A program made the position numbers and the translations under genes. Shown here one piece after another: positions 38,213 through 53,651 of a stretch of DNA of 64,000 bases. The notes under the pieces are model-generated. The model searched no databases. It was given only the letters and a program-made list of their open reading frames with translations, and had not been told where the DNA came from. Source of the stretch: Candidatus Micrarchaeota archaeon (GTDB taxonomy: Archaea > Micrarchaeota > Micrarchaeia > Anstonellales > Bilamarchaeaceae). Numbering within the stretch: the stretch's first letter is position 1; every line of letters begins with the position of its first letter. The stretch is from contig JBDRPL010000006.1 of assembly GCA_043827025.1 (NCBI GenBank), positions 14,204-78,203 on the forward strand. Direction: 5' to 3'.

Positions 38213-39931
38213 ATGGTAATAGCAATGTTGCGCACCCCTATAGATGACCTTTTGGAATATCTTGCAAAAACCAAGACTGCGAATCTCGAGCAGATTTCAA
38301 AGGACCTCAAGTGGAATGTCCATTCACTTGAAAGGGTAATCCGTATCCTGGAGCAGGAAAAATATTTGGATGTCAGATATGCCATCAGCCCGTTTTCCAA
38401 GACAACAATCGGGTTGAAACCAATTTCTGAACTCAAGGAAAAAATAAAGCCAAAGGGAAAGCCGGTTTCTGATTATGTCATCATGGATTCAGGCCAGCAT
38501 CCGCTTGCTAAAGTTTTCATAATCCAGACTCAGGACGATTCCAGACCAACGTATCTCATAGACATGCCTGAGACTTCAATGCCTATGAAATCGTATATCA
38601 ACATATTGAGGAATGAAATCTCCGCAGACCTTCTTGATGAAGTATCAAAGGACAAGATGATCGAATTGGTTTCAATAAGGCTGAAGCAGGACATGCCTAT
38701 AGATGAAAAGGTACTTCCAGAGATATCTGGCATAATGATCCGCGAGATGTATGGTCTCGGAGATATAGATATCTTGGTGAGCGATGTCCTGCTTGAAGAA
38801 ATAGTGGTCAATTCAGCAAAAAATCCTGTTGCCGTTTATCATAGGAAGTTTGGCTGGCTCAGGACCAACATATTTCTTGTTAGTGAGGATCAGATATCAA
38901 ACATATCTGCCCAAATCGCCAGGAGGATTGGAAAACAGATAAGCATACTCAATCCTATTCTTGATGCGCACCTTGAGACTGGCGATCGTGTAAATGCAAC
39001 CCTTTCCCCTGTATCTGAAGGTAATACAATTACCATGAGGCTTTTTGCAAGGGATCCCTGGACGATAGTTAGCCTGATAAGCTCTCACACATTCTCAGTG
39101 GAGATGGTTGCACTTCTCTGGCAGGCAATACATTACGAGATGAATGTCATAGTTGGAGGAGGTACAGGAAGCGGAAAGACAAGCAGTCTTAACAGCCTTC
39201 TTGCACTCATTCCATCTTATCAAAGGATAATCACAATAGAAGATACAAGAGAGTTGGTGCTTCCGAAGTTTCAGTGGAACTGGGTGCCAATGGTAACAAG
39301 GCCTCCGAACCCAGAAGGGCTTGGAGAAGTCACAATGCTTGACCTCGTCGTCAATTCTTTGAGGATGAGGCCTGACAGGATAATCATGGGAGAAATCAGA
39401 AGAAAGAAAGAGGCAGAAGTTCTTTTCGAGGCAATGCACACAGGACATTCTGTCTATGGCACAATACATGCAAATACTGGTGCGCAGGTGCTGAAGAGAT
39501 TGATAGAGCCTCCTATAGAGGTGCCTCAATCCGAGGTTGAAGATATAACTTTATTGATAGTCCACTACAGGGACAGAAGGAAGAATGTAAGGCGCGCTCT
39601 TGAACTTTCCGAAGTGCTTCCGGGCACTGATTCACCGAAAGTCAACCAGTTGTATCATTGGAGGCCGAGGACAGATACCTTCGAGACTGTGAAGGAGCCT
39701 CACAGGTATTATGAAGAGCTTAATCTTAACACAGGCATGACTCCAAATGAAATAATCGATGACCAGAAGAAGAAGCAGATGGTTCTTGAGTGGATGGTCA
39801 AGAATAACCTTGCAGATATAAATCAGGTCGGTCTTGTGATGAAGGATTATTATTCCGATGATTCGGACCTGGTTGATTCAATAAAGAAGAAATATACTCC
39901 TAAAAAGATATTTGGTGATGAACTCGTATGA
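38213..39931 (+). CDS. Type IV pilus assembly ATPase (VirB11/TadA-like) with N-terminal wHTH-like domain
   Basis: GGTGSGKT, TIEDTREL, LRMRPDRIIMGEIR, TGH..YGTIHA. Confidence 0.94.
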   Translation: MVIAMLRTPIDDLLEYLAKTKTANLEQISKDLKWNVHSLERVIRILEQEKYLDVRYAISPFSKTTIGLKPISELKEKIKPKGKPVSDYVIMDSGQHPLAKVFIIQTQDDSRPTYLIDMPETSMPMKSYINILRNEISADLLDEVSKDKMIELVSIRLKQDMPIDEKVLPEISGIMIREMYGLGDIDILVSDVLLEEIVVNSAKNPVAVYHRKFGWLRTNIFLVSEDQISNISAQIARRIGKQISILNPILDAHLETGDRVNATLSPVSEGNTITMRLFARDPWTIVSLISSHTFSVEMVALLWQAIHYEMNVIVGGGTGSGKTSSLNSLLALIPSYQRIITIEDTRELVLPKFQWNWVPMVTRPPNPEGLGEVTMLDLVVNSLRMRPDRIIMGEIRRKKEAEVLFEAMHTGHSVYGTIHANTGAQVLKRLIEPPIEVPQSEVEDITLLIVHYRDRRKNVRRALELSEVLPGTDSPKVNQLYHWRPRTDTFETVKEPHRYYEELNLNTGMTPNEIIDDQKKKQMVLEWMVKNNLADINQVGLVMKDYYSDDSDLVDSIKKKYTPKKIFGDELV

Positions 39932-40833
39932 GCCAGATGATAAAGATTCCTTTTTTGCTAGTCCCTCCGAAAGCAATAGAATCCCATAGCAGGCTCATGG
40001 CAATCGGCAGGGCCTCAAGAAAAATAACTCCTAATCTAAAGAATAATCTTCAGGCATTATATTATACTATTTCTCCGGAATCTTATTTCATGGCATGCCT
40101 TCTTTCATCGCTGGCATACATTTTCGTTTTTTGCATCCTGGTTTTTTCAGTGCTTTTAGTTTTCACTATGGACGCCCCGATGGATGACACATTCACAAAA
40201 TCCCTTGCCCTTGGGTTTATTTTTGGGTTCATGTTTTTCATGCTTTTGCTTATGTACCCCTCTATCCTTGTCAAGAAGATAAGTGCCAAGAAAAACAAGA
40301 ATGTTCTTTTTGCTCTGAGGGAGGTTGTTTTGAGCGTGGAAAGTGGCATAACCCTTTTCGATTCTATGAAGAATGTTTCCACAGTTGCAGACTATGGATT
40401 TGTTGCTGATGATTTTAGGAGGGTCGTGAAGAAGATAGAGTCTGGTTATTCTGAAAAGGAGGCATTGCAGGAGATTGCCATAACCAACCAGAATGAGTAT
40501 ATGAAACGGGCAGCATGGCAGATAATAAATTCTATTGAAACAGGTTCGCAGGTAGGCCCAACACTTGGAACTGTGATTGATGCGCTTGAGAAACAGATTT
40601 ATAGGGAAATCCGCATCTATTCCTCCAACTTGAATTTCATTATGCTTGTTTATCTTCTTGGTGCGGCAGCCCTTCCTTCAATTGGAATCGCTTTCCTTGT
40701 TTTGCTGTCTTTGTTTGGAGGGCTTGGAGTCGACACAAGCACAATTGGGCTTCTTGTTGGAACTTCAGTCGTTTTTCAGATTGTGGTTATAGGTTACGTC
40801 AACAGCACGAGGCCAGATCTTTTCGGTGGTTGA
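39928..40833 (+). CDS. Type IV pilus platform protein (TadB/TadC, T2SS-F family)
   Basis: TM-helical bundle-TM layout; directly after the ATPase. Confidence 0.88.
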   Translation: MSQMIKIPFLLVPPKAIESHSRLMAIGRASRKITPNLKNNLQALYYTISPESYFMACLLSSLAYIFVFCILVFSVLLVFTMDAPMDDTFTKSLALGFIFGFMFFMLLLMYPSILVKKISAKKNKNVLFALREVVLSVESGITLFDSMKNVSTVADYGFVADDFRRVVKKIESGYSEKEALQEIAITNQNEYMKRAAWQIINSIETGSQVGPTLGTVIDALEKQIYREIRIYSSNLNFIMLVYLLGAAALPSIGIAFLVLLSLFGGLGVDTSTIGLLVGTSVVFQIVVIGYVNSTRPDLFGG

Positions 40834-41817
40834 ATGCTTGAACACCTTTTCATTCCTATAGCCAGGCTTTTTGGCCAGGGTTTCATAACTAATGCAAGAA
40901 CAAAACTTTCCTATGCAGGTATCAGCACTGATGCAGAGGTGTGGCTGGGTTCAGCTATTTCATTGCCTTTGTTTGTATCTTTGTTTGGGGCTGCAGTAAC
41001 CTATCTTATGGTTCCTGTTAACAAGGAGTTCAACACCATAATTGTATTTTCAGGTGTCCTCATGCTTACCCTTATTTTAGGCTACATCGAGATTTTTTTC
41101 AAGATTGCCAACAGGGTGAAGAAAGTGGAGGCTGTGTTGCCTGATTTCCTTTTGCTGATAGGTTCAAATCTTCGGGCAGGCATGACGCCTTATTCTGCAT
41201 TCATGTCTTCAGCAAGGCCTGAATTCAACCCATTGTATGAGGAAGTGAAAAAACTTTCCAATGTAGTGAGCTCGAAAACATCTCTGGGCGAAGCCCTTTA
41301 TATGCTTACGAATAGGTTCGATTCACAGATACTTAGGAAAACAATCGGCTTGTTTTCAAAAGGTTCGAAATCCGGAGCTCATCTGGCTGACCTGTTGTTT
41401 TCCAATGCTGAGGAGATAAGGAAAATACACGAATTGAGGCAGGAGTTGATCTCATCCACTCGCTCATATTCCGTGTTTTTGGCATTCATCGTAGTTTTTG
41501 TAATGCCCTTTCTTCTTTCCATCTCCATCCATTTTCTCACTGTTTTTTCAACGATTCAAGAGGATATTGGCATAAGCGGAGATCTCAGTGCAGGCGTAAT
41601 CATATTCAGCGGCCAGGTGGGAATAACTTCTGAGGAAATGCTTGCAATAGCATCAATAACCCTTGCACTCACCACGTTCTTTGCATCTCTGCTTATGGGC
41701 GTCATCAACACTGGAAAGGCGCTGTATGGCATAAAGTACTTTTTTATAATGCTCCTTCCTGCATTCGTATTTTTCTTCTTTGCACAGCAGATAATACAAT
41801 CGACGGTTCCATTTTGA
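40834..41817 (+). CDS. Type IV pilus platform protein (TadC, T2SS-F family)
   Basis: VE..LPDFL...SNLRAGMTP..A...ARPEF motif. Confidence 0.9.
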   Translation: MLEHLFIPIARLFGQGFITNARTKLSYAGISTDAEVWLGSAISLPLFVSLFGAAVTYLMVPVNKEFNTIIVFSGVLMLTLILGYIEIFFKIANRVKKVEAVLPDFLLLIGSNLRAGMTPYSAFMSSARPEFNPLYEEVKKLSNVVSSKTSLGEALYMLTNRFDSQILRKTIGLFSKGSKSGAHLADLLFSNAEEIRKIHELRQELISSTRSYSVFLAFIVVFVMPFLLSISIHFLTVFSTIQEDIGISGDLSAGVIIFSGQVGITSEEMLAIASITLALTTFFASLLMGVINTGKALYGIKYFFIMLLPAFVFFFFAQQIIQSTVPF

Positions 41818-41880
41818 GATTTAATCTAAGACAACCCAATAGATTATAAGCATGCTCCCAGATAAATGCACGGTGAATTC

Positions 41881-42339
41881 ATGGTTAATATCAAAGGTCA
41901 AATCTCTACTGAATATTTAGTTATACTTGCAGTTGTATTGGTCATTGCATTGGTTGTTGTATATATCCTTAGCCAGTCTGTTGCAGGCGTTTCAGGCACA
42001 ATCGAAAAAACGAATCAGGCATATTGGGCAGGACAATCCCCCATTGCAGTCACTGGCTACACAGCATCAGGAGTTGCATTGAAATTGACATTGAAGAATG
42101 TTGATGCGCAGAAGTTGACTGTGACAAGCATTGCAGGAAGCGGAATCTCCACCCTTTCACAGAATGTCACATTTGAAATCGGTGAAGAAAAGGAAGTAGC
42201 TCTTGCACTTGACAGTATCTGCATTCCTGCAACGCCCTTTGAATATAAGGACATAACTTTCACATATGCTAAAGGCACTTCAACAGGTTTAGTGGAATCA
42301 GGGGCGAAATCCGTTATGGGAAAATGTGCATCTAGCTGA
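41881..42339 (+). CDS. Major pilin paralog 1
   Basis: KG|QISTEYLVILAVVLVIALVVV; own TATA and GGTGA RBS. Confidence 0.9.
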   Translation: MVNIKGQISTEYLVILAVVLVIALVVVYILSQSVAGVSGTIEKTNQAYWAGQSPIAVTGYTASGVALKLTLKNVDAQKLTVTSIAGSGISTLSQNVTFEIGEEKEVALALDSICIPATPFEYKDITFTYAKGTSTGLVESGAKSVMGKCASS

Positions 42340-42396
42340 GGCAGTTCGGAATGAAATATTTATAAGCGTATTCTCCCATACTCTTTTGGTGATATA

Positions 42397-42849
42397 ATGT
42401 TTAGTAAGAAAGGCCAGGTCTCCACAGAGTATTTAGTTATTCTTGCGGTAGTACTGGTTATTGCTTTAGTTGTAGTATACATACTAAGCCAATCAAGCAG
42501 CGGAGTCTCAAGCACTCTTGAGAAGACAAGTCAGGCATATTGGGCAGGACAATCCCCTATTGCAGTTACTGGCTATAAGGCAGCAACAACCACATTGACA
42601 GTAACCTTGAAGAATGTCGATGCACAGAAATTGACTGTTACGAATATCGTAGGAAGCGGTGTTACAGCATATACAACCAACGTTACATTGAATGTTGGTG
42701 AAGAAAAAGAAGTTGCATTAACCCTTCCAACTGCATGTACTTCAGGCGCTGCGTATGAGTATGATGATCTTGTGTTCACATATGCCAAAGGTGCATCAAC
42801 CGGCCTTATTGAAGCTGGAGACAAAGCACTTGTAGGAAAGTGTACATAG
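42397..42849 (+). CDS. Major pilin paralog 2
   Basis: KG|QVSTEYLVILAVVLVIALVVV; own TATA and GGTGA RBS; T-rich terminator follows. Confidence 0.9.
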   Translation: MFSKKGQVSTEYLVILAVVLVIALVVVYILSQSSSGVSSTLEKTSQAYWAGQSPIAVTGYKAATTTLTVTLKNVDAQKLTVTNIVGSGVTAYTTNVTLNVGEEKEVALTLPTACTSGAAYEYDDLVFTYAKGASTGLIEAGDKALVGKCT

Positions 42850-46420: not shown

Positions 46421-47494
46421 TTAGGAACTTGTTATCATTTCCTGTTTTTTAGGAAGAACAAATTCGAATCTTTTTGCAAACTGCCTGTAGTGCCAATCCA
46501 TGTATCCTGCAAATCTTTTTGCAGCAAGTGTGCCAGGTATTCCAGCATATCCTTCGTACATGTGCGACCAGTTAATGCCTTTTCCACCATGGCATCGTAC
46601 TACCAGTGAAAGCACTGCATATAATGTATTATTTGTTATCTCATAGCCTGGCCCTTCCTCAGCTGGAAAATTCATCATTGCATAGCCGCCTAGTTTTCTT
46701 ATCGGACGGTTGAACATATACTTTTTTGCATATCTTGGATCTTTGTAATATGTATGTCTTGGTGTTAGCTGTATTCCGATCTGATATAAACCCACATATA
46801 CTGATTCACTGCGCTCTTTTTTCACTATCATAGTGGCATTCGGATAATAACCGCTTTCATGGTCAATTGTTGGCAAAATCCGTAATGGATCTATCCCATA
46901 TATATTCCCAATCATCACCGCGGCGATTGTTGCATGATATACGACTTGTCTTGTTATTTTTCTTTTTCCTTTGTAATATTCAAGCCTACCTTCTACAAAG
47001 TCATCTATTGCCTTTTCATTGATTCGCAATGACTCTGCAAGTGTTTCTGGAGTCACGCCTTCATGTGCGTTTACTATTCCTGCAAGTGTCCTGCACATTA
47101 CCTGGAAGTTTGCATTTTGGCTCATTTCAATCTCTAATTTTCTTCTCTCGTCATCATCCATAATAAGATCTGGATCTACAGTAGTCTCGCTGATTATGTC
47201 TTGATATTTTTTTGCTTCGTTTTCCCACCATTTTTTAGGTAGGGGTGATATTCTTTCCTTTATGTCAGGTACTGATTTCTCGAGAGCATTTGCTACTTCG
47301 CTTTCGCTATAATGCATTTTCTGTACTTCTGCCTCTGCCATATGGTAGATTCTTTTAATTTGTGTTGTGACTGCTCCTTCGGCTTGTGGGAGCATGATAA
47401 TATTGGCAAGAAGGGCAGTGCATGTACTAATTTTGCCTAGTATGCCTGGTTTTGAGGTATGACTTAAGCTGGGTGTTTTTTTTATTAATCGCAT
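46421..47494 (-). CDS. Lytic transglycosylase (SLT/lysozyme-like) domain protein, probably exported
   Basis: YGIDP...IDHESGYYPNA, GLYQI, NN.LYA..SL, W..MYEGY.G; hydrophobic N-terminal segment. Confidence 0.72.
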   Translation of the reverse strand: MRLIKKTPSLSHTSKPGILGKISTCTALLANIIMLPQAEGAVTTQIKRIYHMAEAEVQKMHYSESEVANALEKSVPDIKERISPLPKKWWENEAKKYQDIISETTVDPDLIMDDDERRKLEIEMSQNANFQVMCRTLAGIVNAHEGVTPETLAESLRINEKAIDDFVEGRLEYYKGKRKITRQVVYHATIAAVMIGNIYGIDPLRILPTIDHESGYYPNATMIVKKERSESVYVGLYQIGIQLTPRHTYYKDPRYAKKYMFNRPIRKLGGYAMMNFPAEEGPGYEITNNTLYAVLSLVVRCHGGKGINWSHMYEGYAGIPGTLAAKRFAGYMDWHYRQFAKRFEFVLPKKQEMITSS

Positions 47495-47532: not shown

Positions 47533-48597
47533 TCAGACATATCCTTCAATTAGCACATCATCCTGTACTTGTTTGATTGCAATTGCTTTCAAATGCCAGG
47601 CATCCTTCATTTTTTCCACCCCTTTTCCTTCAAATAGATTTATGCCGTTTCCCAATATTTGGCATGAGATAAAAATAGCGATTTTGTTTATCAATCCAGA
47701 TTCAAGCATTGTTGTTGCCAATTCACTCCCTCCTTCCACAAGTATGGAAGTGATACCTATTTCACCAAGCTTCTCAAGCAATACTTTGAGGTCAATATGG
47801 CCTTCTGATGTTTCTGGCAGGACAAGGACTTCCACACCTTCTTTTTCCAGCTTCTTTCTTTTCTCCTTGTCGTGTTTTGCGCTTGTTGCGATTATCCTTC
47901 TAGCATTGGGTTCAATCCAATTATGGCCAACAGGTGCCTTAAGATAACTGTCAACAATTATCCTTATTGGGTTTTCAGTGCCTGATTTTCTAGATGTCAG
48001 TCTTGGATTATCTACGAGCACAGTATTGATTCCGACCATTATTGCATCATATTCGCTTCTCCAGGAATTGGAAAGCGCCCTAGACTGTGCATTAGATATG
48101 TATTTGGAATCGCCTGTCTTAGTAGCAATTCTGCCATCAAGGGTCATTGCCAATTTCAGCATGACAAACGGTTTTCTTGTCTTTATCCAGTGGAAGAATG
48201 ATTCATTCATTTTATTACATTCCTCGTCTTCTAATATTTTGGCTTCAATCCCCTTTTTCTTGAGTTCAGAAACACTGTTCACCTTTGGGTTCTTGTCTCT
48301 GCACCCTATGATGACCTCTTTGAGCCCAGCTTCAATTATTGCACTGGTGCATGGAGGCGTCTTCTCATAATGTGAGCAAGGCTCAAGCGTCACATAAAGA
48401 GCAGCGCCTTTCAGCTCTTCCTTGTTTTTAACTGATTTTATTGCAGCTATCTCAGCATGGTCTCCGCCGAACTTAGCATGAAATCCTTCTCCAATTATCT
48501 TGCCATTCTTTACAATAACAGCGCCTACTCTTGGATTAGGGGAAGGCCTTGCCTTTTTTGCAAGCTTCAATGCATGTTCTATATATTGGTTAGTCAT
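47533..48597 (-). CDS. ribD: Bifunctional pyrimidine deaminase/reductase (bacterial type)
   Basis: SPNPRVG, HAE, TLEPCSH..KTPPC, TLDGRIA, VEGG. Confidence 0.96.
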   Translation of the reverse strand: MTNQYIEHALKLAKKARPSPNPRVGAVIVKNGKIIGEGFHAKFGGDHAEIAAIKSVKNKEELKGAALYVTLEPCSHYEKTPPCTSAIIEAGLKEVIIGCRDKNPKVNSVSELKKKGIEAKILEDEECNKMNESFFHWIKTRKPFVMLKLAMTLDGRIATKTGDSKYISNAQSRALSNSWRSEYDAIMVGINTVLVDNPRLTSRKSGTENPIRIIVDSYLKAPVGHNWIEPNARRIIATSAKHDKEKRKKLEKEGVEVLVLPETSEGHIDLKVLLEKLGEIGITSILVEGGSELATTMLESGLINKIAIFISCQILGNGINLFEGKGVEKMKDAWHLKAIAIKQVQDDVLIEGYV

Positions 48598-48603
48598 ACG
48601 GGG

Positions 48604-49164
48604 TCACACTAGATGATCAAGCTTCTCTCTCTTTGTTTTTAAGTATTGCCTATTGTATTGGTTGGGTTTTATTGTAAGCGAGATACGCTCCACTACTATC
48701 CCGTTTTCCTCCAAACCTTTCATTTTGTTTGGGTTATTCGTAAGCAGTTTTATCTTCTTTATCCCAAAATATTCGATTATCTTTGCAGCCACTTTGTAAT
48801 CTCGATCATCACCATTGAACCCAAGTTTTTTGTTTGCATCAACCGTGTCAATTCCATTATCTTGGAGCGAGTATGCCTTTATCTTGTTCGCCAGTCCAAT
48901 ACCTCTTCCTTCTTGATCCAGATAAATAATCATGCCGCCTTCATTCCCAATTTGGGCCATTGAAGCTTCCAATTGCTCGCGGCAATCACATCTCAACGAC
49001 CCAAGCGTATCTCCTGTAAGGCATTTTGAATGGACTCGAACCAGCATTCCCTCTTTCGGTTCTTTGTTTGCAAGTACGATATGTTCGTTATCTTTTTCTT
49101 TGAATGCATATATGCAGAATTCTCCGAATTTAGTGGGAATCTTTGATTTTGCAACGAATTCCAT
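48604..49164 (-). CDS. ribA: GTP cyclohydrolase II
   Basis: RVHSKCLTGD..GSLRCDC, QEGRGIGL.NK, LLTNNP.K. Confidence 0.96.
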   Translation of the reverse strand: MEFVAKSKIPTKFGEFCIYAFKEKDNEHIVLANKEPKEGMLVRVHSKCLTGDTLGSLRCDCREQLEASMAQIGNEGGMIIYLDQEGRGIGLANKIKAYSLQDNGIDTVDANKKLGFNGDDRDYKVAAKIIEYFGIKKIKLLTNNPNKMKGLEENGIVVERISLTIKPNQYNRQYLKTKREKLDHLV

Positions 49165-49176
49165 AATTTCATCTCC

Positions 49177-50052
49177 TTATCTGAGCCTTTGGCAAAGCTT
49201 GATTGCTGCTATCACTGCGTTTCTTGCATATTCTTCTTTCCTTTCTTCTGCCTGTTTTTCATTTGCTCCAGGCCCTATTATGCCTAAGGTTACGGGCATG
49301 TTGAATTCCAGCGACAATCTTGATAATTGGTTTGCAGTTGAGTTCGCAATTACTTCATCGTGTTTTGTTTCTCCTTTGATTACTGCGCCCAGTGTAACAA
49401 TTGCGTCATTCCTTTTATCAAGCAATAACTTCTTTACTGCCAATGGGATGTCAAAACAGCCTGGAACAAAAATGATTTCGCCAATCTCGATTTTGTTCTC
49501 TGTGCAGGTTTTCTTCGCAACATTGACCATAAATTCGGTTATCTCTTTTTCGAATTCACCCACAACAAACCCAAACCTAATCTGTTTCTTCTTTCCCCAT
49601 TCACCTTCATCTTCGAATCCCTGTCTTATTCCTTTTCCAGCCTGTTCGATTAGTTTGTTCGGGTTAAGTATAATGTCAACTGCATTGCAAGTATGTTTTC
49701 TAATTCGATTCTCCGCGATTTTCATCACTTTTTGTTCATTCCATGCTTCAGTTTCAAAGACAAAGACTTCGATTATGTGCTTTCCTGAATTCAATTTTGC
49801 CTGCTGTATTGAAAGCGATGCTTCGTGTGCGCATTGCACATCAATCTTTGCTCCTCCGCCCATTCCCAGAGCCATTGCAATGTCACAGTCTTTCAGCAGA
49901 AGTTGGCATTCCACTGCCAAGTCCTTGAACCCAGGAACAGTCTTCCTTACGATTTGGATTTTGGCATTCGGATATTTTGTTTTGATCTCGTTAATTGCAA
50001 TTTCTCCCATATTCATCCTTGCGAACATCGTATCGATAATGGCGATTTTCAT
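49177..50052 (-). CDS. ribC-ribH: Fused archaeal riboflavin synthase (N-terminal) + 6,7-dimethyl-8-ribityllumazine synthase (C-terminal)
   Basis: N-half IDTMFAR, TVPGFKDL, CAHEAS, GKGIRQGFED; C-half VVGEF, VPGCFDIP, LGAVIKGETKHD, PVTLGIIGPG, QAEER; no stop between them. Confidence 0.92.
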   Translation of the reverse strand: MKIAIIDTMFARMNMGEIAINEIKTKYPNAKIQIVRKTVPGFKDLAVECQLLLKDCDIAMALGMGGGAKIDVQCAHEASLSIQQAKLNSGKHIIEVFVFETEAWNEQKVMKIAENRIRKHTCNAVDIILNPNKLIEQAGKGIRQGFEDEGEWGKKKQIRFGFVVGEFEKEITEFMVNVAKKTCTENKIEIGEIIFVPGCFDIPLAVKKLLLDKRNDAIVTLGAVIKGETKHDEVIANSTANQLSRLSLEFNMPVTLGIIGPGANEKQAEERKEEYARNAVIAAIKLCQRLR

Positions 50053-50070
50053 AAGTTTCACCTTATTGTC

Positions 50071-50700
50071 TTATCCTTCGATTATTTCCTTTCCTTCAAT
50101 CAGCACAAGTTTATTCTTCTCTGCGTACTCTTTGATTTCCTTCTTTGGAAGCGCATTTCCCTTTCCAAGCATCTCGCACAGCACCATCATCTCGATTCCT
50201 GCTCTTTTTCCAAGTTCAAGTGAAAGTTCTGTATGCCCTTTTCTGTTTTCAATTCCTCTTCCAATAAGAAGAAACACATGTCCAGGCGTGTAAAAGTTCG
50301 CAACCAATTCATCTTTCGTTTTGGTTTTTGATATTTCTTTAATTGTAAGCGCTCTATCGTTGTCAGGTATTCCAGTATAAACTCGTTTGTGATTTACAGA
50401 AATCGAAAAGGAGGGTTTATCTCCGTAAGCAGTTCTATTACATTTCATTCCCTTCAGCTTCGAGTTTGAACTCTCTAGGATATCAGCATAGAACTCCAAT
50501 CCAAGCCTGCCTGCCCTTTCCTTAGCCACAGCAAGGCAAATCAGTCCGCCAGCATCTTTTCTAAGTATTTCAACGTATTCAGGCTTTGCAAATTCAGCCC
50601 CAAAAACCAGGTCAGCTTCACCTTCACGCCCATCTCCATCATAGATAAGAATCATCTTGCCTTTTTTCAGTTCTGAGACTGCCTTTTCCACATTATCCAT
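50071..50700 (-). CDS. ribB: 3,4-dihydroxy-2-butanone 4-phosphate synthase (archaeal type)
   Basis: YD.DGREGEAD, GGLIC, YGDKPSFSI.VNH, TGIPDNDRA, PGHV, R.GHTE, CEML. Confidence 0.95.
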   Translation of the reverse strand: MDNVEKAVSELKKGKMILIYDGDGREGEADLVFGAEFAKPEYVEILRKDAGGLICLAVAKERAGRLGLEFYADILESSNSKLKGMKCNRTAYGDKPSFSISVNHKRVYTGIPDNDRALTIKEISKTKTKDELVANFYTPGHVFLLIGRGIENRKGHTELSLELGKRAGIEMMVLCEMLGKGNALPKKEIKEYAEKNKLVLIEGKEIIEG

Positions 50701-50714
50701 AAGTAGATATCTGT

Positions 50715-50738
50715 TAGTTACTTATTTATAGGTAACTA
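50715..50738. promoter_or_regulatory. Palindromic operator overlapping the TATA box of the rib operon
   Basis: TAGTTAC-tTATttATAg-GTAACTA; minus-strand TATAAATA inside, about 23 nt upstream of the ribB ATG. Confidence 0.6.
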
Positions 50739-50765
50739 CTAACTTATTGGTAATCGTTCGTACAC

Positions 50766-51080
50766 CTAAATCTTCTTCGTTTTCATCTCAGCAATGAAAC
50801 TGTTTGCCAATTCCTTTAGTCTAGGTTCCCTTGTCTTTTCTATGAATTCCCTTAGCTCGTAGATATGTCCATTCAAACCCTGAGTTGCATGTCCTCTTAT
50901 GCGGGCATCCTTTGCTTCAAGCGCGATCTTAAGCGTTGCCTTTGTTTCTTTTAGTTCAGCAAGGGCATCAACTGCTTCACAGCCTTGGTCTTTGGATTGG
51001 TCTTTTGATAGTGCAGTTTCTGTCAGCTTCTTAACAAGTTCTTTACGTTCCTTCTGTGTCATTTGTATTATTGGAAACAT
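50766..51080 (-). CDS. Small HEAT-like helical protein
   Basis: EAVDALAEL...L.IAL..KD.RIR..A pattern; TGATG overlap with the pyrK stop. Confidence 0.6.
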   Translation of the reverse strand: MFPIIQMTQKERKELVKKLTETALSKDQSKDQGCEAVDALAELKETKATLKIALEAKDARIRGHATQGLNGHIYELREFIEKTREPRLKELANSFIAEMKTKKI

Positions 51081-51889
51081 CAGTAATCCTCTTTTTTTCC
51101 AGAAGCCCCTCTGTGCACCTTTCCGAATTCGCCCATCTTCAAGATGTCTTCTGCATTGAATACTGGTCCGTCTCTACATACGGATTTTCCATTAAGATCG
51201 CATGAGCCGCATATCCCAATGCCGCATTTCATGTACCTCTCCAAACTAAGTTGGCACGGAATCTTCAGTTCGTCACATTTCTTTGCAAGGAAATACATCA
51301 TCTTCTCCGGACCGCATGAGTATATTTGATCGAATTTGCCTTTTTCTAATTCACTAGTGAGGCATTGAACTGCGTTGCCCTTGAAACCGCAAGAACCATC
51401 GTCCGTACTGGTTAGTACTTTGCATCCAAGTGACTCAAATTTCTTTTCATAAACCAGGTCTTTCTTCTCTCTTGCGCCAATGATTACAGTTGTCTTGACT
51501 CCATTTTCCTTTGCTTCTTGGGCAAGTGAGTAAAGAGGAACAACTCCATAGCCTCCGCCAACAAGGCAAATCTGTTTTCCTTTCAATTCGAAACCTTTTC
51601 CAAAAGGTCCTTTGAATGTGAACAGATCACCTTTCTTCAGTTTGTGCATCTCTGCGCTGAATGGACCGACATTCGCAACGCTGATTGTCAATGGCTTGGA
51701 TTTCGCAATTCCAATAGGCTTCTCACTAACATTTGGAATCCAGGCCATGATATACTGGCCAGGAACAGCATCGGTCAGCTCGACATCTATCTCGAATGTC
51801 TTGATTCTGTAATTCTCTTCACTAACATTAGTTATCTTTCCAGTTTTGAGTTTTGCGTCTCCGAATTTCATTTTATTCACATCAAACAT
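51080..51889 (-). CDS. pyrK: Dihydroorotate dehydrogenase electron transfer subunit
   Basis: PGQY.M.W, GPFGKGF, GGGYG, TDDGS, CGPE.M, ERYMKCGIGICGSC...CRDGPVF; start 51889 or 51871. Confidence 0.94.
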   Translation of the reverse strand: MFDVNKMKFGDAKLKTGKITNVSEENYRIKTFEIDVELTDAVPGQYIMAWIPNVSEKPIGIAKSKPLTISVANVGPFSAEMHKLKKGDLFTFKGPFGKGFELKGKQICLVGGGYGVVPLYSLAQEAKENGVKTTVIIGAREKKDLVYEKKFESLGCKVLTSTDDGSCGFKGNAVQCLTSELEKGKFDQIYSCGPEKMMYFLAKKCDELKIPCQLSLERYMKCGIGICGSCDLNGKSVCRDGPVFNAEDILKMGEFGKVHRGASGKKEDY

Positions 51890-51976
51890 AACTAGTGTAA
51901 GGACCAGATTAAAAGTTTTCCATTCGTTGTAGTTTATGTAGTTATGTTTATTAATTCTTCCTAACAACATTCCTCC

Positions 51977-52714
51977 ATGGCTATCAGTCAAACTACAGTG
52001 GTTCATGCCAGGCCTGGACATTCAACAAGAGAAAAGGCCTTTCAAGGAGTTACTCTTCTTTCAGATGCTGGGCGAAAAACCTTATTGGCAGGATTGCCTA
52101 ATTACCCAGAATCCAGAGAAGTGGCACTTGCTATGTGGAAGCTTTGTCCGAATTTAGCTCGTGGTTCTGCAGTAACTGCTGAACACATTCATAGCTATCG
52201 GGTTACAAGAACAAGTAATGTTGTTGTAGTTGCTCATGAGAACGACTTTCCTTTTCCTAATCAAAACAAATTCGTTGTTTATCCAAGACCAGAGCATTTT
52301 CCTATGTTTGTTCTTGCACTTAACAGTGTCAGGCCAGGCAGTTATGGCGAATTAAATCCTGGTTCCATAGGCACCTTGCGCACATCTTCATTTCGAGACA
52401 TTGTCTTTGACATACAAGCGCACTACAGGACCATTAATCCTTATAATTCTGATTCGCTTCCTCGTAAATATTCTACATTGTATGGTGGTTGGCGTATTCA
52501 TGTTATTGAAGAATTTTTAAGGATGGGCATATCATTAGGTTCCCAGCCATTTGAGTTCAGTTCTAATTTATTTGTGCATTCCGAATTGCACAATATCGCT
52601 ATTCTTCGAGACATCGTGTCTGTTCTATCTCGCTTCGGCATGTCCCATTCAACTGATGGTTCTAGGGTCGAACGAGTACAAGAGATTCCAGATTCCCAGC
52701 TTATGTTTGTCTGA
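51977..52714 (+). CDS. Hypothetical protein (orphan) inverted between pyrD and pyrK
   Basis: 245-aa ORF filling the gap; no motif recognised. Confidence 0.65.
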   Translation: MAISQTTVVHARPGHSTREKAFQGVTLLSDAGRKTLLAGLPNYPESREVALAMWKLCPNLARGSAVTAEHIHSYRVTRTSNVVVVAHENDFPFPNQNKFVVYPRPEHFPMFVLALNSVRPGSYGELNPGSIGTLRTSSFRDIVFDIQAHYRTINPYNSDSLPRKYSTLYGGWRIHVIEEFLRMGISLGSQPFEFSSNLFVHSELHNIAILRDIVSVLSRFGMSHSTDGSRVERVQEIPDSQLMFV

Positions 52715-52724
52715 GTTATCCCAT

Positions 52725-53651
52725 TTATCTATGCACAGCTCCAATTATCTCATTATAATCAGAGTATCCATGCTCTTCCATCCATTTCTCCATCTCATTT
52801 GCTATCTGCGAGAATGCTTCCTTTCCTCTGTAATAAACTGCTGTTCCTACTCCGATTGCAGAAGCGCCAGCCATCATCATTTCTATTGCATCCTTTCCGT
52901 ATGTGATTCCACCTGTTCCTAGGATTGGAATCTTAACTGCAAGATGAATATCGTAAACGCATCTAATCATCAGAGGTTTTATCTGAGGTCCGCTCATTCC
53001 TCCGAATTTGAATGTCAAGACTGGCGTTTTTCTTTCAATATCAATAACCATTCCTGGGCCTGCAGTATTGCCCATATTGATCGCATCTGCCCCGTTCTTT
53101 TCAGCAGCCTTTGCTAACTCTCCAATTCCCTGCGAGCTTGGCGATAGTTTTACAATTAGTGGAAGGTTTGTCTTGCTTTTTATTGCCTTTGTTATTTCTC
53201 CAACTGCTTCAGGAGTTCCCTGGCCTGCAAGCGTACCATAGCCAGGTGTGTGAGGGCAAGAGACCGCAGCTTCAAGAACACTGCATTTCAGGCTTCCGCC
53301 TTTTCGGGCAGCCTCGATTTTTTCAGCCAGTTGGCCAAATTCATTCGCATCCTTACCCGTAATACTCATAATGAGATGCTCTTTCCTGTTCCAGCCTGAA
53401 AACTCTTTAATTCCTTCGTCAATTCCTGGATTGCTTAGGCCAACAGCATTCAGGAATCCGTAATCGCATTCAGCTAATATTGGAGGTTTATGGCCAGTTC
53501 TTTCATCTTTTGTAAGCGACTTTATAGTAACAGCGCCTGCACCTTTCTCACAAACCTCTTCCAATCCAGCTCTAGTGACTCCAAGTATTCCAGAAGCCAA
53601 GATAAGCGGATTCTTCATCTCCATTCCAAGGAATTTAGTTTTGATAGACAT
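52725..53651 (-). CDS. pyrD: Dihydroorotate dehydrogenase catalytic subunit (family 1B)
   Basis: NPLILASG, LNAVGLSNPG, SCPH, VKLSP, GGMSGP.IKP, GTGGI. Confidence 0.95.
   Translation of the reverse strand: MSIKTKFLGMEMKNPLILASGILGVTRAGLEEVCEKGAGAVTIKSLTKDERTGHKPPILAECDYGFLNAVGLSNPGIDEGIKEFSGWNRKEHLIMSITGKDANEFGQLAEKIEAARKGGSLKCSVLEAAVSCPHTPGYGTLAGQGTPEAVGEITKAIKSKTNLPLIVKLSPSSQGIGELAKAAEKNGADAINMGNTAGPGMVIDIERKTPVLTFKFGGMSGPQIKPLMIRCVYDIHLAVKIPILGTGGITYGKDAIEMMMAGASAIGVGTAVYYRGKEAFSQIANEMEKWMEEHGYSDYNEIIGAVHR

Follow-up and report, generated by a model that had tools for sequence, protein, structure and literature searches.

A stretch of 64,000 nucleotides from a Candidatus Micrarchaeota archaeon (the window) carries what looks like one gene for two consecutive steps of riboflavin synthesis, which raises the question of whether a single chain unites both enzymes and, if so, what kind of assembly they form. 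The ribC-ribH fusion gene lies at 49177..50052 on the minus strand and runs from an ATG at 50052 to a TAA at 49177. It encodes 291 aa plus the stop, with zero internal stop codons, in agreement with the single uninterrupted frame claimed in an earlier note on this DNA. Starting instead from a GTG in the same frame at 50061 would lengthen the product to 294 aa, and the plus-strand frame at 49177-50052 contains many stops.

The earlier note read the two halves as an archaeal riboflavin synthase (RS) and a lumazine synthase (LS), and proposed a domain search with profile models; that search placed both domains above curated cut-offs. More specifically, residues 2-150 matched TIGR01506 (ribC_arch, model positions 1-149 of 151) with 168.3 bits against a cut-off of 100.55, and residues 158-290 matched the lumazine synthase model TIGR00114 with 126.1 bits against 84.6, while falling short of the thresholds set for PRK00061 and PRK12419, which are bacterial models. 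Pfam reports two PF00885 stretches in the protein. The chain can be divided into an RS domain of the archaeal pentameric type (residues 1-150; 49603..50052, minus strand) with an ordered tail at A138-G150, a short linker placed by the RQG-to-Phe spacing and the lowest pLDDT values (residues 151-157; 49582..49602, minus strand), and an archaeal-type LS domain (residues 158-291; 49180..49581, minus strand). The best solved relative of the N-terminal half is the M. jannaschii riboflavin synthase 2B98 (E 3.8e-40; Foldseek rmsd 1.4 A, TM(target) 0.94), and that of the C-terminal half is B. subtilis 1RVV. By homology, an archaeal pentameric-type RS joined to a lumazine synthase is thereby confirmed.

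Comparison with the stand-alone enzymes shows what the two halves have kept and what they have changed. The RS half shares with M. jannaschii RibC (PDB 2B98/2B99; TIGR01506) the fold, about 50% identity, the conserved motifs and the predicted ring interface. However, the M. jannaschii enzyme is a separate protein of 156 aa, whereas the RS of the fusion carries LS on its C-terminal tail and has F99 in place of His, W104 in place of Lys and E149 in place of Ala. The LS half shares with RibH (TIGR00114, PF00885; 1RVV from B. subtilis, 1HQK from A. aeolicus) the flavodoxin-like fold, the equivalents of F22, H88 and R127, the G-x-T phosphate-binding loop and the modelled pentamer interface. Unlike those enzymes, it lacks both the N-terminal arm and the loop between the last two helices, its capsid contacts are polar or acidic, and its N-terminus is covalently joined to RS.

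The catalytic positions were assessed in an alignment of 116 fused proteins (the query and 115 of its best 120 homologues, with five near-duplicate or partial rows excluded). In the RS half, D7, T8, F10, D44, D71, C74, R116, H120 and R143 are invariant in 116/116. The conserved motifs DTxF, TVPGxKD, D71/C74, R116 and GxGxRQG are all present, and their residues are reported to line the RS active site (Ramsperger 2006). In the LS half, F167, G227, T229, H231 and R271 are likewise invariant in 116/116; F167, H231 (in GETKH) and R271 (in QAEER) correspond to F22, H88 and R127 of 1RVV, bearing out the Phe, His and Arg named in the earlier note, and G227/T229 form the G-x-T phosphate loop. Domain identity and intact catalytic positions together predict a bifunctional enzyme.

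One departure had been noticed from the outset: against 2B98, the usual VFVHEDE indeed reads VFVFETE here, with Phe99 (49756..49758, minus strand) replacing the His of the VFVHE motif. A dead or weak domain (for example, RS through this change), or mixed rings built from the paralogous RS and LS domains, would undermine the bifunctional reading, and the query is also off consensus at E168 (Asn in 112/116) and N278 (Arg in 99/116). We consider such an outcome highly improbable. Position 99 is His in 104/116 and Phe in 12/116 of the aligned fused proteins; in a broader set of 140 rows, Phe or Tyr occurs there in 14, from several lineages, and 8 of those 14 are unfused; the His is thus no strict hallmark of the RS family. 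Covariation links position 99 to positions 42, 65 and 81, and we read Phe99 as a tolerated variant that is not peculiar to fused proteins or to the query. In addition, the genome offers no second RS or LS gene, the operon and its putative operator are intact, and the structure model described below pairs like domain with like, which speaks against hybrid rings.

A stop codon at the junction was the obvious way in which the fusion could have proved illusory, as the earlier note had pointed out. One Logan contig covers the entire operon with 0 differences and has no stop there, and it probably comes from the source sample, hence is not independent. Pieces from a second study match the sequence identically, with the RS-LS junction lying outside them. 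Assembly error or read-through was rejected on the grounds of 120 full-length homologues. One NCBI gene call for the same sequence (P0277) holds only the final 150 aa, from Ile142; given that it starts inside the RS tail, we read it as a probable mis-call. A conserved internal restart yielding free LS was also rejected, with a Met in the linker in just 7/59 fused loci. Where database names are given among the 120 best of 446 homologues, they are nearly always 'riboflavin synthase' alone. With fused proteins filed under RS-only names or as half-length calls, DPANN pathways can seem incomplete.

The genomic setting points to a working pathway. On the minus strand, the operon runs ribB, the ribC-ribH fusion, ribA and ribD. 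The ribB gene (50071..50700) encodes a DHBP synthase for supply of the four-carbon substrate (PF00926, 172.8 bits; TIGR00506 above cut-off), ribA (48604..49164) a bacterial-type GTP cyclohydrolase II (PF00925, TIGR00505 and NF001591 above cut-off), and ribD (47533..48597) a bacterial-type bifunctional deaminase-reductase (TIGR00326, 324 bits). According to the open text of PMC5397151, such a mix with bacterial-type RibA and RibD was already known for some archaea. The host genome (1.33 Mb, 91.6% complete) holds no other PF00885 gene and 0 matches to the trimeric riboflavin synthase PF00677, and the fusion is its sole candidate for both steps.

Upstream of ribB, a tandem palindrome (TTAC-N10-GTAR, twice; 50718..50753, minus strand) overlaps a TATA-like box and is a unique site in the genome. 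With 0-1 mismatch, it recurs at 50/58 family loci and 7/20 other loci, as against 0/1160 shuffles. The RbkR consensus given for Thermoplasmata and Thaumarchaeota in the text of PMC5397151 is the same, and Micrarchaeota are absent from Table 2 of that paper. The genome also encodes a 217-aa CTP-dependent riboflavin kinase (contig C2; L173:1486-2139, minus strand) in which PF01982 exceeds its cut-off and a MarR-type HTH is matched weakly, short of its own. Both parts of a candidate RbkR regulon, an HTH-fused riboflavin kinase and a palindromic operator, are present, which would extend this regulon into Micrarchaeota, and the pathway reads as one that is probably maintained and regulated.

With the survey for two-domain homologues that the earlier note had proposed, we asked how widespread the architecture is. 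The homologue search returned 446 proteins, the best 120 of which align over 88-100% of the query with 54-72% identity; the few organism names among these 120 belong to Micrarchaeota, with Ca. Bilamarchaeaceae and Ca. Bilamarchaeum among them, apart from a single Aenigmarchaeota. Across 401 scanned genomes of the phylum, ribC is present in 61 of the 75 genomes of the window's family, which the named members of the fused clade suggest to be Ca. Bilamarchaeaceae. Of these 61 loci, 58 are fused and 2 separate, and the last is truncated where its contig ends, such that 58/60 assessable loci are fused. In other Micrarchaeota families, the fusion was found in 1 of the 65 genomes over cut-off (L152). 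For these 65 genomes, the 29 loci that ranked highest by open-frame length and score were read (28 separate, 1 fused); in the remaining 36, no open frame exceeds 197 aa, which leaves no room for both domains. Of the 80 best among 320 GTDB loci, 6 were fused, 51 had ribC directly upstream of ribH and 23 had LS alone. The description of Bilamarchaeaceae in PMC8561730 does not contain 'lumazine', 'fusion' or 'fused' in its open text.

Two family members, L094 (G172) and L121 (G087), have unfused ribC and ribH. Both branch with genes of other families, and replacement by transfer is the likely explanation from the tree. Secondary fission was considered and rejected, with no case seen and the position of these two fitting replacement. 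Separately, RibB-RibA fusions occur in two other Micrarchaeota families (L086, L171), and no triple or longer fusion was found among 2528 candidates of 511-2000 aa, a count that weighs little as evidence.

The spacing between the RQG of RS and the Phe of LS in fused loci is 22-29 residues, with a mode of 24. This linker length equals an unfused RS tail plus an LS head, that is, a plain end-to-end join, and it therefore points to stop loss between abutting genes. We postulate that the stop codon between adjacent ribC and ribH was lost and that the resulting fusion then went to fixation within a single Micrarchaeota family. A FastTree built on 140 rows, with 7 duplicates dropped, gathered 59 fused rows into one starred group, with one further family member just outside it. 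A single origin for all RS-LS fusions was rejected by the AU test (p-AU 0.0006, 23 fused vs 43 unfused rows), while the main family and L152 were tolerated as one group (p 0.26); both values come from an LG+G4 quick tree with no mixture model, built on 66 rows drawn from the 140 plus 6 representatives.

Further analysis of representatives at 50% identity uncovered additional RS-LS fusions (P0123-P0131), of which P0129 is named Woesearchaeota. These proteins and L152 lack Trp104 and are dispersed among unfused relatives in the tree. The same enzymes also occur in reverse order, with a RibH2-like LS (PRK12419) followed by a pentameric RS (P0147, P0278-P0285; 9 clusters, 60-78% identity). The reverse-order proteins are Ala/Arg-rich and bacterial-looking, and a metagenome scan with them returned 13 loci that matched the RS half only. 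The reverse-order family suggests that archaeal-type riboflavin synthase may occur in bacteria. Collectively, these results indicate that the pair has been fused at least 2 times in the present order and once reversed, and that the fusion is a family trait with repeated origins, not a one-off.

The representatives held other architectures as well. One tandem LS-LS protein has near-identical halves and is possibly an assembly artefact (P0179), and an HTH-RS fusion and an LS-HTH fusion were seen (P0174, P0183). N-terminal extensions occur on LS (P0210, P0211, P0215, P0227, P0230, P0232, P0241, P0252, P0267 and P0268) and on RS (P0135 and P0136). The extensions of these archaeal-type enzymes span 130-350 residues, are Pro/Ala/Glu-rich and match no Pfam family; several of the extended LS have a conserved start motif in common.

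We also used structure prediction, which the earlier note had suggested. AlphaFold2 models the single chain as two flavodoxin-like domains (pLDDT 93, pTM 0.75), with the lowest pLDDT blocks (60-76) in the linker region and the last two LS helices continuous over residues 265-290. A three-copy model scored 0.78, compared with 0.00 for the best of 3 controls; its runs share at least 97% of contacts, with a pLDDT of at least 87. The score mark was reached by 20/30 proteins solved as pairs and 1/23 solved as single chains, a calibration from which the three-copy model differs in copy number, and the three chains form an arc, with the ring unclosed. This pass may be explained by resemblance to the solved pentamers 2B98 and 1HQK. 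The model forms both ring interfaces, placing RS-RS and LS-LS surfaces between the same neighbouring chains, and the two rings can therefore sit in register.

The assembly that we consider probable from this model is a bifunctional homopentamer of two coaxial rings with a fixed contact between them, in which five RS domains would form one ring and five LS domains the other. The rings would stack head to tail, the active-site face of RS abutting the side of LS that points outward in capsids, an inter-ring contact would include W104, E149 and K213, and an icosahedral shell would be absent. The main gain would most likely be a fixed 1:1 stoichiometry and co-assembly. The earlier note had offered either a stacked double pentamer or a decorated capsid; the three-copy model and the fusion-specific residues favour the former, and the acidic or polar contact positions discussed below count against the latter.

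Three residues distinguish the fused proteins. Trp104 (49741..49743, minus strand) is present in 60/60 fused vs 0/79 unfused rows and in 155/155 of a larger fused set. Glu149 (49606..49608, minus strand) occurs in 60/60 fused vs 7/38 unfused Micrarchaeota-type rows and in 154/155 of the larger set. Lys213 (49414..49416, minus strand), its candidate partner, lies on the LS face closest to the linker and is found in 59/60 fused rows, 14/38 unfused Micrarchaeota-type rows, 5% of 41 other archaeal rows and 154/155 of the larger set. By topology, the loop that holds W104 belongs to the active-site face of RS, at the C-terminal ends of its strands, and K208, K213, E249 and L290 occupy the N-terminal strand ends of LS, the side on which the linker comes in; from these positions, head-to-tail stacking is predicted. 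The strongest covarying pair (109-152) locates the exit of the linker on the helix that neighbours the W104 loop. We take W104, E149 and K213 as hinting at an evolved inter-ring contact, a lead and not a result; W104 could instead cover the active site of RS as a lid.

Alternatively, both domains might be active with their rings only tethered, like beads on a string, after a near-neutral stop loss in a tight operon, in which case W104, E149 and K213 would be marks of lineage or RS-site residues. Several observations are consistent with such a tether, which we hold to be unlikely. Abutting ribC and ribH genes are found in most archaea examined, and fusions arose several times; the independent ones lack W104, which implies that a special interface is not required for fusing. 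The three-copy output contains no identified RS-LS contact, its 25 best-ranked contact pairs all being LS-LS, and covariation between the domains, computed on 155 rows (Neff about 105), yielded no coherent patch. A permutation test for enrichment of fusion-specific residues on the facing sides, with a crude face coordinate and no correction for kinship, returned p 0.003-0.06 for RS and 0.003-0.05 for LS against unfused Micrarchaeota-type rows at six thresholds, whereas against all unfused rows it was not significant (p 0.14 and 0.11). Four unfused control clades showed no RS-high/LS-low pattern, and the fused set was also non-significant in that comparison. However, the three residues persist in 154-155 of 155 proteins in which the LS halves average about 52% identity, and no fission was seen in the family. 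The pTM of 0.75, compared with 0.53 for the reverse-order fusion, also argues against a loose tether, although weakly, given the 9-row alignment and disordered tail of the latter.

The lumazine synthase of M. jannaschii is reportedly a 60-mer. The fused LS could in principle build a T=1 60-mer that carries RS as 12 pentamers on the exterior of its fivefold vertices, in effect a heavy riboflavin synthase turned inside out. The RS/LS symmetry match would be exact, and LS N-termini point outward and tolerate fusions according to the open text of PMC7369331. The same text states that some archaeal LS form capsids, in disagreement with the text of PMC13376624, where archaeal LS are pentamers or decamers. 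In Aquifex, the pentamer-pentamer contacts are made by R21, R40, H41, L121 and I125 (PMC4737204, open text), and their equivalents here are E166, E185, N186, E265 and E269, position 265 being assigned by anchoring on R127 (an ungapped Aquifex alignment gives N264). R40E/H41E plus L121E or I125E yields pentamers according to that text, and the Glu change at L121/I125 alone gives expanded capsids according to the text of PMC7369331. In addition, the 128-134 loop of capsid-forming LS (Aquifex numbering) is absent from the fused protein.

Positions 169, 185 and 186 are hydrophobic in 41/41 non-Micrarchaeota stand-alone LS, but in only 2%, 3% and 17% of 60 fused LS; unfused Micrarchaeota show intermediate values (18%, 29% and 55%), which implies that the loss of capsid positions is largely older than the fusion. 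Position 265 runs against capsid loss, being hydrophobic in 68% of fused rows with Trp or Tyr in 36/60, and bacterial capsid rules may not be transferable to archaeal LS. On balance, the polar or acidic contact positions make a decorated capsid less likely than the double pentamer, and we regard it as decidedly unlikely.

Channelling of a metabolite requires confinement. For these enzymes, turnover is 0.02-0.06 per second according to the text of PMC13151069, at which rate tethering alone should not channel. True channelling is a claim separate from double-ring assembly, and a less likely one. Head-to-tail stacking would leave the LS active sites facing away from the RS ring, and direct hand-over would therefore need the fivefold pore; both the route of lumazine from LS to RS and the pore as that route are debated, as the text of PMC13151069 describes. 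One can picture a cage-free, covalent and symmetry-matched 'heavy riboflavin synthase' in which one mouth of the LS fivefold pore is capped by the RS ring and W104 and E149-K213 seal the chamber, with lumazine passing through the pore to the five RS sites and the pyrimidine returning the same way. We judge this capped-pore arrangement unlikely. If true, archaea would have their own means of channelling between LS and RS, and the role of the fivefold pore as a conduit for substrate and product could be tested directly.

The nearest functional parallel is the heavy riboflavin synthase of B. subtilis and A. aeolicus, an RS trimer inside an LS 60-mer that couples the same two consecutive steps. 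It is a non-covalent 3:60 complex with an unrelated trimeric RS and a C-terminal signal, whereas the fusion is a covalent 1:1 pairing of paralogous pentameric enzymes, and the trimeric PF00677 cargo is, as noted above, without a match in the host genome. Such encapsulation is predicted in bacteria only (60/166 organisms), according to the open text of PMC13376624. The Brucella RibH2 decamer also stacks two pentamers of the same fold (PMC7369331, open text), but its rings are identical LS rings set head to head with no covalent link, in contrast to the covalent RS and LS of the fusion. Fused pathway steps are common, as RibBA and RibD show for the rib pathway.

The earlier note knew of no characterised example, and this still holds: no description of an RS-LS fusion was found in titles, abstract openings and passages of the open full-text literature. 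PMC5397151 marks gene fusions in its Figure 3 and supplements, and these, like the supplements of PMC13376624, could bear on novelty. The texts of the reviews PMC13151069, PMC10366380 and PMC13028884 mention none. The fusion is a real, conserved and apparently undescribed architecture that unites two known enzymes. With its natural two-domain subunit of 32 kDa, more than 100 homologues, and independent and reverse-order fusions, it provides a compact system for measuring coupling against the split enzymes. If the domains are merely tethered, it would be an ordinary operon fusion. The double ring proposed from the model would give archaea an alternative to the enzyme cage of some bacteria, and since both parent pentamers serve as nanoparticle building blocks, a natural double ring would have design value.

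Several neighbours of the operon were also observed in the window. Directly downstream of ribD, a 357-aa ORF (46421-47494, minus strand) has no Pfam match, a signal-like N-terminal segment and an E-S-G motif that presumably resembles those of lytic transglycosylases. On the other side, pyrK and pyrD, which encode dihydroorotate dehydrogenase subunits, lie at 51080-53651 on the minus strand, with a 245-aa plus-strand ORF without a Pfam match between them. Farther away, at 39928-42849 on the plus strand, the translations reveal a pair of membrane platform-like genes and, after them, a tandem pair of pilin-like genes whose products have class III signal peptides.
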